A DNA stretch of 64,000 bases, from IMG/VR virus record IMGVR_UViG_3300045988_111617; one strand, given 5' to 3'. Numbering within the stretch: the stretch's first letter is position 1; each line of letters begins with the position of its first letter. The translations under genes were made by a program, and so were the position numbers. The notes below the pieces were generated by a model, which had not been told where the DNA came from, did not search any database, and worked only from the letters and a program-made list of their open reading frames with translations. This stretch comes from a virus. Shown here piece after piece: positions 58,250 to 59,985 of this stretch.

Positions 58250-58332
58250 ATGCGGGAGGGGGACTTGAACCCCCGAGGCTAAAGAGCAGGAGCTTATGAG
58301 ACTCCCCAGATACCAACTTCTGACATCCCGCA
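58250..58332 (-). tRNA. tRNA with CAU anticodon and a long (14-nt) variable arm (type-II architecture); identity uncertain (Met/Ile2-like anticodon on a Leu/Ser/Tyr-like scaffold)
   Basis: Hand-folded: acceptor TGCGGGA/TCCCGCA (7 bp), D-stem 3-4 bp with loop AAGTTGGTAT, anticodon stem GGAGT/GCTCC with loop CTCATAA, variable region TGCTCTTTAGCCTC, T-arm GGGGG-TTCAAGT-CCCCC. Confidence 0.55.
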
Positions 58333-58342
58333 ATATTTATTG

Positions 58343-58414
58343 AGCCTTCTATTGGAATTGAACCAATATCTACTGATTACAAATCAGTTATAATAACCTT
58401 TATATTAAGAAGGC
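58343..58414 (-). tRNA. tRNA-Thr (anticodon UGU)
   Basis: Acceptor GCCTTCT/AGAAGGC; anticodon stem ACTGA/TCAGT with loop TTTGTAA; T-arm ATTGG-TTCAATT-CCAAT. Confidence 0.7.
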
Positions 58415-58455
58415 AACACTCTTATAGTATGCTTATAAGCCTTAAGAGTTTATTG

Positions 58456-58538
58456 TGGGGATAGAGGGATTTGAACCCTCAAGAGACATGCTCATGGGTG
58501 TTTAAGACCCATATGTTTACCAGTTTCATCATACCCCC
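58456..58538 (-). tRNA. tRNA-Leu (anticodon UAA), type II
   Basis: Acceptor GGGGGTA/TATCCCC (G:U at position 5); anticodon stem TGGGT/ACCCA with loop CTTAAAC; long variable arm TGAGCATGTCTCTT; T-arm GAGGG-TTCAAAT-CCCTC. Confidence 0.7.
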
Positions 58539-58545
58539 AATCCCT

Positions 58546-59004
58546 TTAATAACTTCTTGTTGAATCACAAAGTTCAAACAAGTACTTGTACTTCCATATG
58601 TTGTGAATGAAAGTCTCACACTCTGACCTCACTCCTGCATATTCCACTGAGTCTGGAATTGATGAGTAGAATTTAAGGGTCAGGTTCTTCACTTCAAGTA
58701 TGAACTCCATTGCATTAAGAGTGTTACTCTCAGTTCCAACTATCTTGTTTGGAGCCATGTGACCAAGTATTCCTTGCATCTCTTCTGCAAGAGAGTCCTG
58801 ATAGTCACTTAAAATCTCAAGAAAGTCATCCAGATATATATGAATATTCTTCTTTGGAGCTGCCCAGTGAAGATTCTTACATTTAGCCTTCCATCCTTCA
58901 AGTCTGTTTATAAAACTTATAAAGAATGAGAAGGTATCTGGAGTCTCATCTTTTGGTGCTTGACCAGGAGCTGGTATAGGGTCTAAAAGTAAATCTCCTA
59001 TCAT
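58546..59004 (-). CDS. Hypothetical protein (152 aa) embedded in the tRNA array
   Basis: ORF between tRNA-Leu and tRNA-Phe. Confidence 0.6.
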   Translation of the reverse strand: MIGDLLLDPIPAPGQAPKDETPDTFSFFISFINRLEGWKAKCKNLHWAAPKKNIHIYLDDFLEILSDYQDSLAEEMQGILGHMAPNKIVGTESNTLNAMEFILEVKNLTLKFYSSIPDSVEYAGVRSECETFIHNIWKYKYLFELCDSTRSY

Positions 59005-59063
59005 TTCTTCTGCAAATATAAGTATTTTATTTTAAACTTCCAAATAAAATTGTAAGTTTTTAG

Positions 59064-59137
59064 TGGAGACTGTGGGAGTTGAACCACACTTTTCTGGATT
59101 TTCAGTCCAGCACATTTACCACTAATGTTAAGTCTCC
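59064..59137 (-). tRNA. tRNA-Phe (anticodon GAA)
   Basis: Acceptor GGAGACT/AGTCTCC, discriminator A; D-stem ACAT/ATGT; anticodon stem CTGGA/TCCAG with loop CTGAAAA; T-loop TTCAACT. Confidence 0.7.
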
Positions 59138-59153
59138 ATAGATGGAAGCATAG

Positions 59154-59226
59154 ACTCCAGGGTAAGAATCGAACTTACACAAAGTAGTTTTGCGGACTAC
59201 TGCATTAACCTTTCTGCTACCTGGAG
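59154..59226 (-). tRNA. tRNA-Cys (anticodon GCA)
   Basis: Acceptor CTCCAGG/CCTGGAG; discriminator U73 (a Cys identity element); anticodon stem GTAGT/ACTAC with loop CCGCAAA; T-arm GTAAG-TTCGATT-CTTAC. Confidence 0.65.
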
Positions 59227-59232
59227 AATCAG

Positions 59233-59305
59233 GGTGTCTTATTGGAGTTGAACCAACATCATCTTGAGCCACAATCAAGTGCTCTACCATTAAGCTAAAG
59301 ACACC
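59233..59305 (-). tRNA. tRNA-His (anticodon GUG) with G-1:C73
   Basis: Extra 5' G(-1) pairs with discriminator C, which is a His hallmark. Acceptor GTGTCTT/AAGACAC; anticodon stem CTTGA/TCAAG with loop TTGTGGC. Confidence 0.75.
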
Positions 59306-59307
59306 AG

Positions 59308-59380
59308 TGGGCAAATAAGGATTTGAACCTTCATTTCCTGAGTATCAGTCAGGGTTCCTAACCAATTAGAAGATATGCCC
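59308..59380 (-). tRNA. tRNA-Ile (anticodon GAU)
   Basis: Anticodon stem CCTGA/TCAGG with loop CTGATAC; T-loop TTCAAAT; acceptor GGGCATA/TTTGCCC with one mismatch. Only 2 nt separate it from tRNA-His. Confidence 0.65.
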
Positions 59381-59385
59381 ATTAG

Positions 59386-59458
59386 CAGGTCCTTAAGGAT
59401 TTGAACCCTAATCAAGGGTTTTGGAGACCCTTATGCTAACCAATTGCACCAAGAACCC
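59386..59458 (-). tRNA. tRNA-Trp (anticodon CCA)
   Basis: Acceptor GGGTTCT/AGGACCT (two G:U pairs), discriminator G; anticodon stem AGGGT/ACCCT with loop CTCCAAA; T-arm TAGGG-TTCAAAT-CCTTA. Confidence 0.65.
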
Positions 59459-59464
59459 AAGTGG

Positions 59465-59535
59465 CTGGGGTAGAAGGAATTGAACCTTCATCCACAGATT
59501 AACAGTCTGTTGCTTGACCTTCCAGCTATACCCCA
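59465..59535 (-). tRNA. tRNA-Asn (anticodon GUU)
   Basis: Acceptor TGGGGTA/TACCCCA, discriminator G; anticodon stem ACAGA/TCTGT with loop CTGTTAA; T-arm GAAGG-TTCAATT-CCTTC. Confidence 0.7.
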
Positions 59536-59566
59536 GTTTCAACTAAAAAAAAACAAATGAGAAATG

Positions 59567-59639
59567 TGGACTCTTGGGGAATTGAACCCCAACTCTCTGC
59601 TTGCAAAGCAGAAGTGCTAACCATTATCACTAAGAGCCC
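59567..59639 (-). tRNA. tRNA-Ala (anticodon UGC) with G3:U70
   Basis: Acceptor GGGCTCT/AGAGTCC contains the G3:U70 wobble that is the Ala identity element; discriminator A; anticodon stem TCTGC/GCAGA with loop TTTGCAA. Confidence 0.75.
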
Positions 59640-59643
59640 AAAG

Positions 59644-59717
59644 TAGGGAAGAAAGGGCTCGAACCTTCATCTTCTACATCCCAAATGTAGCCAATTAACC
59701 AATTATTGTACTTCCCT
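59644..59717 (-). tRNA. tRNA-Pro (anticodon UGG)
   Basis: Acceptor AGGGAAG/CTTCCCT; D-stem CAAT/ATTG; anticodon stem CTACA/TGTAG with loop TTTGGGA (G37); T-arm GAAGG-TTCGAGC-CCTTT. Confidence 0.7.
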
Positions 59718-59732
59718 ATAACAATCATATTG

Positions 59733-59828
59733 CGGAGAGCAATGTACTTGAAACATATCCCCCTGAGAGAACCTCATGTTTAGCAGACAGAGCCAGAATC
59801 TGTAGTGCTACCATTACACCACATCCCA
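59733..59828 (-). tRNA. Atypical tRNA-like element with a Gln-type (CUG) anticodon arm and a ~30-nt insertion before a T-arm-like hairpin; possible pseudo- or non-canonical tRNA
   Basis: 5' half folds canonically (acceptor TGGGATG, D-arm GTGT-AATGGTA-GCAC, anticodon stem ACAGA/TCTGT with loop TTCTGGC). The 3' side shows a hairpin ATGT-TTCAAGT-ACAT, but no 3' strand complementary to the acceptor 5' strand was found by hand. Confidence 0.3.
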
Positions 59829-59912
59829 GGGTACCTACTATTCATATGTAACTATAATGTACACTTTAATTATATATGTCTGGAATCTGTAGGTTGGTTC
59901 TTAACCAGTTTG

Positions 59913-59985
59913 TTGAAGGGGAAAGACTCGAACTTTCATCTACCTGTTTCAAAGACAGGAATGTTTACCGTTACACCACCCTTCA
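59913..59985 (-). tRNA. tRNA-Gln (anticodon UUG)
   Basis: Acceptor TGAAGGG/CCCTTCA; D-stem GTGT/ACAT; anticodon stem CCTGT/ACAGG with loop CTTTGAA; T-arm GAAAG-TTCGAGT-CTTTC. Confidence 0.7.

Follow-up and report, generated by a model that had tools for sequence, protein, structure and literature searches.

The last gene of a tRNA array in a crAss-like gut phage combines a CAU anticodon with a long variable arm, and is best described, on its sequence, as an initiator-type tRNA-Met that carries a short structured hairpin in its variable region. The array lies on the minus strand at 58249-59985 of a 64,000-nucleotide stretch of DNA (the window) from IMG/VR virus record IMGVR_UViG_3300045988_111617. 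Sequence comparison further identifies a thirteenth tRNA-like locus within the array (59731-59828) as a dead chimera, whose 5' part comes from a tRNA-Gln(CUG) and whose 3' part comes from a Ser-like tRNA. We put the probability of this joint explanation, an initiator-type long-arm CAU tRNA and a deletion chimera, at about 60%. Across the genomes compared, the long-arm CAU tRNA is real, conserved, and non-canonical, and genes of this kind already stand unremarked in GenBank phage annotations.

Initiator-like features of the CAU tRNA

ARAGORN calls the gene at 58249-58332 (minus strand, 84 nt) as Met(CAT) with a long variable arm, and its minimum-energy fold in RNAfold is a five-arm cloverleaf (-33.2 kcal/mol, z = -2.18). 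The 7-bp acceptor stem, UGCGGGA/UCCCGCA (U1:A72, G2:C71, C3:G70, G4:C69), leads through the 3-nt connector UGU into a 4-bp D stem, CAGA/UCUG, which contains A11:U24 and closes an 8-nt loop, AGUUGGUA, with G18G19. The anticodon stem, GGAGU/GCUCC (A29:U41, G30:C40, U31:G39), presents CAU in the 7-nt loop CUCAUAA, with U33 and a purine at position 37, and the T arm reads GGGGG-UUCAAGU-CCCCC. Between these two arms the variable region, U-GCU-CUUU-AGC-CUC, spans 14 nt, compared with 4-5 nt in a class I loop, and forms a 3-bp hairpin; the discriminator is U73, and CCA is not encoded. A preliminary description of this DNA had proposed both the CAU register and the long variable region, and ARAGORN, RNAfold, and an RNAalifold consensus of 22 relatives agree on them, none giving another register or a short loop. 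The consensus comprises the cloverleaf and the hairpin, with compensatory changes at 12 of 23 pairs.

Several relatives encode CCA (GCA-A-CCA; GCA-U-CCA in the tRNA of contig L122), which fixes the acceptor register. An alternative register beginning at G (G1:C72, discriminator A) is contradicted by these sequences and would lose U8 and cut the T stem to 4 bp; an 8/5 or 8/4 geometry, of the tRNA-Sec or allo-tRNA type, was also rejected because U8 cannot pair with C65. The Rfam search gives no RF00005 row for this gene but a weak match to tRNA-Sec (RF01852), at 24.9 bits short of its gathering score of 47; overlapping matches of lower score from the same clan are omitted from the table, so an RF00005 match below 24.9 bits may be hidden.

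The textbook invariants of initiator tRNAs are position 1:72, three G-C pairs in the anticodon stem, and A11:U24, which marks them as a class. The window gene has the G2:C71, C3:G70, G30:C40, and A11:U24 of bacterial tRNA-fMet; at 1:72 it is equivocal, with U:A, a weak Watson-Crick pair. Its acceptor is nearly the same as that of E. coli tRNA-fMet (CGCGGGG/CCCCGCA; the reference sequence was checked and is present in 5426 of 5426 E. coli genomes). The likeness extends to the CUCAUAA loop, G4:C69, G5:C68, the canonical T loop, and G18G19 and, at the level of the family described below, to a weak or mismatched 1:72 and to A73 in 90% of members. Initiator mutants of E. coli with U1:A72 keep formylation and gain elongator activity. 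The determinants recognized by formyltransferase are mainly the 1:72 mismatch with 2:71 and 3:70, and G30-C40 alone is enough for initiator function in E. coli; natural au/GC/gu variants of the three pairs also exist (PMC5389676).

Bacterial tRNA-fMet (e.g., E. coli metZWV/metY) is a core chromosomal gene product with a variable region of 4-5 nt, whereas the long-arm CAU tRNAs are encoded by phages and mobile-element arrays and have variable regions of 12-22 nt, usually with a hairpin of 2-6 bp. The window copy differs further in U1:A72, U73, the 3-nt connector, and in having one of the three G-C pairs (beside A29:U41 and U31:G39). As far as we are aware, every initiator tRNA described belongs to class I, and we know of none in cells with an extra hairpin.

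The same position at the end of the array is taken by a CAU tRNA in the nearest annotated relatives of the window phage. In crAss001 it is an 87-nt long-arm CAU tRNA (NC_049977, 5721-5807; C1xA72, A73), annotated only as "tRNA-Met", and in bajarodcaudo virus 1 an 88-nt long-arm form (C1xA72, A73) with an unrelated 20-nt variable hairpin; cr85_1 and IAS virus have an initiator-like CAU tRNA of normal length, 71 nt with C1xA72 in the former and 72 nt with U1:A72 in the latter. Like the window gene, those of crAss001 and bajarodcaudo virus 1 adjoin the same block of small open reading frames (ORFs), transcription factor, and HU gene, and combine the CAU anticodon with an initiator-like acceptor and a long variable arm. 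The crAss001-type lineage differs in its D stem, GUGU/ACAU (U11:A24), and its 20-nt variable region, AGAAGCAGUAAUACUGUGUU, as well as at positions 1:72 and 73. The window tRNA is closer to tRNAs of jumbo-phage contigs and of Cytophagales/Sphingobacteriales arrays than to the crAss001 type.

Long-arm tRNAs in phages and mobile elements

More than 130 distinct long-arm CAU tRNAs were found in phages and in Bacteroidota mobile-element tRNA arrays. A first pattern scan of IMG/VR (CTCATAA, a gap of 20-32 nt, the T arm, then YCCGYA) returned at least 120 matches, in whose loci ARAGORN calls at least 80 distinct CAU tRNAs of 80-94 nt; their variable regions, of 11-20 nt, are diverse in sequence and mostly form hairpins. 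Among 77 unique, well-parsed tRNAs of this set, canonical pairing reaches 96-100% at 2:71 to 7:66 and at all five positions of both the anticodon stem and the T stem, and compensatory changes are frequent. G2:C71 is present in 75 of the 77 (97%), C3:G70 or U3:G70 in every one, and G30:C40 in 97%; the discriminator is A73 in 69 (90%) and U73 in 5. By comparison, 1:72 is canonical in only 47% (U:A 36, C:A 31, A:A 8, G:A 2). Because the pattern fixed A72, only U1 could pair, and an elongator would need U1 throughout; the unconstrained 1:72 of this family is, as read from the alignment, an initiator hallmark. Every member has the anticodon loop, but the pattern and the parsing demanded CTCATAA/T, so its invariance is no independent evidence.

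A second scan, with the acceptor unconstrained, added at least 62 further unique long-arm CAU tRNAs. Among the matches listed, about half have a GCGG/CCGC acceptor, with 1:72 being U:U in 18, C:U in 4, C:A in 3, U:C in 3, and A:A in 2, and the other half have a paired 1:72 (G:C 13, A:U 9, and others) on elongator-Met-like or Ile2-like acceptors. D-arm type correlates with variable-arm type, which suggests several lineages. In the subfamily of the window tRNA the hairpin is 2-3 bp long, built of G-C, then C-G, U-A, or U-G, then U-A, C-G, or A-U, with a GNRA or U-rich cap and CUC or CCC following.

Bacterial assemblies with genuine long-arm CAU tRNAs include Xanthocytophaga flavus, Prevotella sp. 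KH2C16, P. dentasini, and metagenome-assembled genomes (MAGs) of Sphingobacteriales and other Bacteroidota, and nearly all of these genes lie within multi-tRNA arrays. In a chromosomal array of X. flavus (L133, 1261-4053) the long-arm CAU tRNA is followed by Lys, Arg, and Leu tRNAs and then by two RNA ligases, one of PF09414 with an OB fold and one of T4 Rnl1 type (PF09511), an arrangement suggestive of a module that both supplies and repairs tRNAs. In Prevotella sp. KH2C16 the neighbours of the array are two integrases and a HipA toxin. Both are mobile-element settings. Two MAG matches duplicate phage tRNA sequences, being phage contigs binned into the MAG. Most matches in the bacterial scan (Verrucomicrobiota, Terriglobia) were rejected as fragments resembling the 3' half of tRNA-fMet with no 5' half. 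These fragments (L126-L205, from Verrucomicrobiota, Chthoniobacterales, and Terriglobia MAGs) combine CTCATAA with a GC-rich hairpin, a T arm, and CCCCGCAACCA. Some occur in tandem, as in L178, where five copies are spaced at about 320 nt; they may be what is left of attachment sites, or a tRNA-like repeat.

Isotypes whose cellular forms belong to class I can have long arms as well. Counted as unique sequences, they are found in Asn(GUU) (12 of 54), Thr (5), Asp (4), Ile (4), Cys (3), Trp (3), Lys (2), His (2), and Pro (2), in a biased sample of loci chosen for having a long-arm CAU tRNA. The arm is thus not confined to initiator-like tRNAs, which makes a general role more likely than an initiation-specific one, and it is probably a general trait of phage tRNAs. 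Long-arm class I isotypes of 80-95 nt were seen on IMG/VR contigs L009, L010, L020, L025, L027, L040, L051, L071, L087, L096, L113, and L116, among others, and in some phage tRNA-Asn genes the D arm is of the Ser/Leu type (GCCGAGUGG..AAGGC) and the discriminator is G73.

Alternative readings, proposed working, and significance

Several observations weigh against an initiator assignment. In the window copy 1:72 is a Watson-Crick pair where initiators are normally mismatched, the discriminator is U73 and not the initiator A73, G30:C40 is the only one of the three anticodon-stem G-C pairs kept, and 31:39 is U:G instead of the purine:pyrimidine form of natural variants. The CAU tRNA of three sister phages has A73; U73 recurs among the long-arm CAU tRNAs of L012, L108, L122, and L040. 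At the level of the family, the first scan demanded A72 and a YCCGYA acceptor strand, so that its sample is biased toward initiator-like forms, and the pairing of 1:72 in about half of the second-scan tRNAs implies that the arm is not tied to initiation. Phages L016, L019, and L025 carry the long-arm form together with an initiator-like tRNA of normal length, so the former may have a separate role; this group also has elongator-Met-like and Ile2-like tRNAs. We came across no cellular initiator tRNA with a long variable arm (no survey of them was made), and the compatibility of the arm with formyltransferase, IF2, and the ribosomal P site is assumed.

The preliminary description had recognized that the CAU tRNA belongs to no canonical class and had offered a new initiator or elongator among its options. 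An elongator tRNA-Met with an odd variable arm, in which U1:A72 permits EF-Tu binding and the gene adds to the decoding of internal AUG codons, would agree with the U1:A72 of the window copy and its closest relatives, with the retention of one initiator G-C pair of three, and with the gene being the sole CAU tRNA of the array. We consider it unlikely. A11:U24 and G30:C40 are both present, A1xA72 occurs in members of the same subfamily (L121, L123), and the positional orthologues in crAss001, cr85_1, and bajarodcaudo virus 1 have C1xA72. All three genomes have, in addition, a CAU tRNA of elongator type whose acceptor differs (UCUGAUA or GUUGAUG); in crAss001 and bajarodcaudo virus 1 the initiator-like gene that accompanies it is the long-arm form.

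For the window phage, the main rival to an initiator is an AUA decoder of the tRNA-Ile2 type, in which TilS would make lysidine at C34, IleRS would charge the tRNA, and the product would serve the frequent ATA codons. ATA makes up 49% of the Ile codons (619 codons) in the window ORFs, and the array has tRNA-Ile(GAU) as its only tRNA-Ile, with no UAU tRNA, while cr85_1 and IAS virus have a tRNA-Ile(UAU). The 1:72 pair of the window copy is also compatible with this role, and the second scan found phage long-arm CAU tRNAs with Ile2-like paired acceptors (GGGCC.., GGACC..). The acceptor of the window gene is nevertheless of the tRNA-fMet type from G2:C71 to G5:C68, and 1:72 is mismatched in 53% of the family, which is disfavoured in an elongator that binds EF-Tu. 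Moreover, L025 has an Ile2-like CAU tRNA as a separate gene beside an initiator-like long-arm form, and L240 carries both a tRNA-Ile(UAU) and a long-arm CAU tRNA, so that we regard an Ile2-type decoder as improbable.

A role outside translation, in which the tRNA would serve as decoy or sponge and draw off toxins directed at initiator tRNA (VapC-type nucleases, acetyltransferases), also carries low odds, as does a decaying gene with no role at all. Some phages have the long-arm form next to a normal initiator-like tRNA, and the chromosomal arrays adjoin RNA ligases (Xanthocytophaga) or integrases and a HipA toxin (Prevotella). VapC cleaves tRNA-fMet, and phage tRNAs have been proposed to act in counter-defence by evading anticodon nucleases (PMC10264068). 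U73 in the window copy would suit either a decoy or a decaying gene. Conservation across very different phages excludes decay, however, and the maintenance of all stems by compensatory change fits a working tRNA, even if a decoy would need much of the same shape.

The remaining alternative is a switch of identity, in which SerRS, LeuRS, or TyrRS would accept the tRNA and AUG would be read as, or translation started with, Ser, Leu, or Tyr. The preliminary description saw every hallmark of the Leu/Ser/Tyr class in this gene and named identity switching or mistranslation as a possibility. The stem-loop between the anticodon and T arms is indeed shared with class II tRNAs and tRNA-Sec, the hairpin, in which a single unpaired nucleotide precedes a stem of 3 bp with a 4-nt loop and three unpaired nucleotides follow, is laid out like that of bacterial tRNA-Tyr and of the phage tRNA-Tyr in sister genomes, and tRNA-Sec is the only Rfam match listed. 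Only the 3-bp hairpin is alike, however. G73 is typical of Ser, Leu identity calls for A73 and a class II D arm with its 3-bp stem, and Tyr identity for a GUA anticodon and A73, and a CAU anticodon is the dominant determinant for MetRS. The gene has a CAU anticodon, U73 (A73 in relatives), a 4-bp D stem, an 8-nt D loop, an fMet-type acceptor, and a variable stem of 3 bp (2-3 bp and often GNRA-capped in relatives), and it lacks the D-arm features of class II tRNA-Leu. Where tRNA-Sec has UCA, 8/5 geometry, and a 6-bp D stem, it has CAU and 7/5 geometry, with neither an 8/5 nor a 9/4 arrangement. Since long arms are found in Asn, Asp, Cys, Lys, Thr, and Trp tRNAs too, mistranslation across all of them is implausible, and identity switching, given the fMet-type acceptor and the non-class-II features, is the least supported of the options in the preliminary description and very improbable. 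An origin of the arm by recombination with the phage tRNA-Tyr was rejected; the layouts are similar, with no common sequence. The allo-tRNAs of Mukai et al. (2017) are said to combine 8/4 and 9/3 cloverleafs and long variable arms with assorted anticodons. The window gene resembles them in having a long variable arm with an anticodon that is not of Leu, Ser, or Tyr, but it has canonical 7/5 geometry and an initiator-type acceptor, and nothing suggests a Ser identity.

If the gene is an initiator, the host MetRS would charge it through the CAU anticodon, the host formyltransferase would accept it through a weak or mismatched 1:72 with G2:C71 and C3:G70, and G30:C40 would admit it to the ribosomal P site for the start of translation. 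In the window phage, U1:A72 would probably allow some use in elongation as well. The extra hairpin most likely leaves the interactions with MetRS, formyltransferase, and the P site intact. It may, speculatively, stabilize the fold of A+T-rich phage tRNAs, or it may shield the tRNA from tRNA-targeting nucleases and toxins of the host by making it a worse substrate. We propose only tentatively, as a possible but doubtful extension, that phages and mobile elements encode a distinct and widespread class of long-arm initiator tRNAs together with long-arm versions of many class I isotypes, in which the arm is an adaptation that keeps the tRNA usable by host MetRS, formyltransferase, and ribosomes yet hidden from the nucleases or toxins with which the host disables its initiator tRNA in abortive infection, or by which phage factors distinguish phage from host tRNAs.

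A full-text search, covering part of the literature, turned up no account of initiator tRNAs with a long arm, and the crAss001 genome paper discusses neither the 87-nt CAU tRNA of that phage nor the 88-nt one of bajarodcaudo virus 1. The window gene has no RF00005 row in the search output and the plain label "Met" in ARAGORN, so annotation pipelines hide the long-arm class. An initiator-like long-arm family, if confirmed, would mean that a fifth arm is acceptable to the initiation machinery, would raise the question of why mobile elements select for it, and would bear on the debate over whether phages carry tRNAs for codon supply or for escape from tRNA-targeting defences. With crAss001 and Bacteroides intestinalis there is a cultured, tractable pair in which the 87-nt "tRNA-Met" is annotated and not discussed.

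The thirteenth locus and the surrounding array

The preliminary description noted a thirteenth locus with a perfect Gln-like 5' part and no matching acceptor strand, which is real, and for which ARAGORN predicts no canonical tRNA-Gln; it proposed a decaying duplicate, an intron-containing tRNA, or a split or permuted gene. Comparison with sister phages shows it to be instead a deletion-junction chimera of two different genes. Its 5' part (59788-59828, minus strand), located by alignment and exact pattern match, covers tRNA-Gln(CUG) from position 1 to the 3' strand of the anticodon stem and is identical to 2611-2651 of sister phage L006, where 2611-2682 is an intact 72-nt tRNA-Gln(CTG) (ARAGORN; RF00005 58.9 bits). 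The window follows the L006 gene from position 1 to ...GATTCTGGCTCTG and diverges beyond it.

The 3' part (59731-59787, minus strand), delimited by alignment to sister phages L004-L006, is the 3' end of an 87-nt Ser-like tRNA element. It contains an anticodon loop CUGCUAA, a long variable region, the T arm AUGU-UUCAAGU-ACAU, and the acceptor 3' strand GCUCUCC followed by G, and it matches the element GGAGAGT...GCTCTCCGCA with one C/T difference. This parent element is the same in L004, L005, and L006, directly upstream of tRNA-Pro. It looks Ser-type in its GCU anticodon (loop CUGCUAA), its long variable region, its canonical T loop, and the G that follows the acceptor stem; ARAGORN calls it only at a relaxed threshold and in another register. 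The sister phages keep both parents of the chimera intact.

The breakpoint can be placed on a 9-nt direct repeat, CTGGCTCTG, which L006 has twice (2643-2651 and 3202-3210) and of which the window retains one copy (59788-59796, minus strand), as located by blastn against L006. The two copies sit in the anticodon-stem region of tRNA-Gln(CUG) and at the boundary between D stem and anticodon stem of the Ser-like tRNA. When the window is compared with L006 by blastn, the two collinear blocks have precisely these 9 nt in common, which indicates a clean 559-bp deletion between direct repeats. What the window has lost by it, compared with L006, is the 3' part of tRNA-Gln(CUG), tRNA-Glu, tRNA-Asp, a second Ser-like element, a spacer, and the 5' part of the Ser-like tRNA.

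That the locus is instead a functional intron-containing, split, or permuted tRNA-Gln(CUG) has in its favour the perfect tRNA-Gln(CUG) sequence through the anticodon stem, and it is effectively excluded. At the 95% and 85% thresholds, with and without intron search, ARAGORN makes no tRNA call here, and at 70% it returns only a meaningless call with a 2-nt anticodon; Rfam RF00005 scores 24 bits at 59748-59828, below its gathering score of 29. The ends are non-complementary and no cloverleaf forms (z = -0.46), a complement of the acceptor 5' strand UGGGAUG is absent downstream, the locus has no 3' acceptor strand, and the 3' part belongs to another gene, which is intact in three sister phages, with the junction falling on the 9-nt repeat.

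The chimera is a neat but minor pseudogene. Like the tRNA pseudogenes and fusions of other phage and mobile-element arrays, it is a truncated, fused remnant in an array that varies between near-identical genomes; unlike other such fusions, it can be traced to its two parents and to an exact breakpoint at a 9-nt microhomology, and it is a clean, base-resolved case of the microhomology deletions between tRNA genes that reshape phage tRNA arrays. The alignments indicate that such deletions have remodelled this array. Separately, the window differs from L006 by a second deletion of about 268 bp (window 58333-58341 / L006 4670-4936), with the loss of a tRNA-Gly(UCC) between the Thr and CAU tRNAs, and L005 has at about 3099-3160 the 5' part of a tRNA-Glu fused to the 3' end of a tRNA-Asp at a shared T loop, GTTCAAATC (partial Rfam tRNA, 33 bits). 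Two Ser-like elements are conserved between tRNA-Asp and tRNA-Pro in L004 (2255-2345 and 2527-2613), L005, and L006, neither of which ARAGORN or Rfam calls at default settings. One has a UGA anticodon loop and unusual D and T loops (GGAAGAG...CTCTTCCGCA), and the other, with the GCU loop, is the parent of the chimera.

The array itself, of 12 tRNA genes called by ARAGORN on the whole window, all on the minus strand at 58249-59985, is ordinary for crAss-like phages. ARAGORN agrees with all twelve tRNAs and anticodons of the preliminary description, whose layout holds with two additions, the common strand and an ORF that splits the array. In the direction of transcription the first gene is tRNA-Gln(UUG) (59912-59985; RF00005 64.1 bits), followed on the far side of the chimera by tRNA-Pro(UGG) (59643-59717; 60.9 bits), tRNA-Ala(UGC) (59566-59639; 56.6 bits), tRNA-Asn(GUU) (59462-59535; 64.6 bits), tRNA-Trp(CCA) (59385-59458; 57.9 bits), tRNA-Ile(GAU) (59307-59380; 53.2 bits), tRNA-His(GUG) (59232-59305 with the encoded G-1, 59232-59304 in ARAGORN; 66.9 bits), tRNA-Cys(GCA) (59153-59226; 58.1 bits), and tRNA-Phe(GAA) (59063-59137; 57.8 bits). 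Then come the dividing ORF (58546-59004, minus strand, 152 amino acids, from the ORF list), tRNA-Leu(UAA), an ordinary class II tRNA (58455-58538; 58.3 bits), tRNA-Thr(UGU) (58342-58414; 66.2 bits), and the CAU gene; all but the last of the twelve score 53-67 bits with RF00005. The dividing ORF is DpsA-like, with a weak match to Pfam DUF5856, and its homologue is annotated as "putative DpsA protein" in cr85_1 and crAss001. Reading the sequence bears out the earlier observations of spacers down to 2 nt (between Ile and His), of G-1 in tRNA-His (59305, opposite C73), and of G3:U70 in tRNA-Ala.

Missing from the tRNA set called by ARAGORN are an AUA decoder and tRNAs for Arg, Lys, Glu, Asp, Gly, Val, Ser, and Tyr. 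Many of the isotypes absent here are present in sister and related phages, and gene content varies, with 12, 15, 8, and 16 tRNA genes in four sister genomes. Codon-usage compensation, the function favoured in the preliminary description, is plausible for A-ending anticodons and fails for ATA, the codon used for about half of Ile residues and left with no AUA decoder. In the window ORFs CGN accounts for 2 of 784 Arg codons, and NCG codons are very rare.

The window has a G+C content of 34.6% and uses the standard genetic code, under which 40 non-overlapping ORFs fill about 88% of it. They end in TAA (31), TGA (5), and TAG (4), the last being a stop that the preliminary description had omitted when it named the other two; its conclusion that there is no suppressor anticodon and no recoding stands, as neither the ARAGORN tRNA set nor the ORF and stop analysis of the window gives any sign of them. 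Sequence similarity places the window in the crAss-like gut phages (Crassvirales), close to Steigviridae subfamily Asinivirinae. Its capsid region is about 75% identical in DNA to crAss001-like Bacteroides phages, and the nearest annotated relatives are cr85_1 and IAS virus (both Steigviridae, Asinivirinae), crAss001, and bajarodcaudo virus 1. These share with the window an array at the same place, an embedded DpsA gene, and, downstream, a set of small ORFs together with a zinc-finger factor, a VpsT-like regulator, and HU. The sister strains L004-L006 are three IMG/VR contigs of 103-104 kb whose DpsA is 97-98% identical. In cr85_1 (L001, 2883-2971) ARAGORN calls an 89-nt "tRNA-???" with a 2-nt anticodon between tRNA-Leu and tRNA-Phe, an element not annotated in RefSeq.

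A PHROGs search of 20 ORFs flanking the array and at the window ends, six of them also searched with Pfam, found no tRNA-processing, formyltransferase, aminoacyl-tRNA synthetase, or RNA-ligase gene among them. Promoter-like sites occur at chance level in a scan that does not cover Bacteroidales promoters, and the seven terminator-like sites found (about 1.7 expected) do not delimit the array. Immediately upstream of the first tRNA gene, at 59989-60010, is a 9-bp hairpin, TAAGAAGGCCTAAGCCTTCTTA; the scan places it on the plus strand, and, being nearly palindromic, it may terminate the minus-strand ORF that lies upstream (59998-60234). Homing endonucleases of the GIY-YIG/HNH type are encoded by three paralogous ORFs (phrog_314, E 1e-25 to 1e-28) on the minus strand at 53848-54630, 54910-55587, and 30603-31211, two of them just downstream of the structural gene block.

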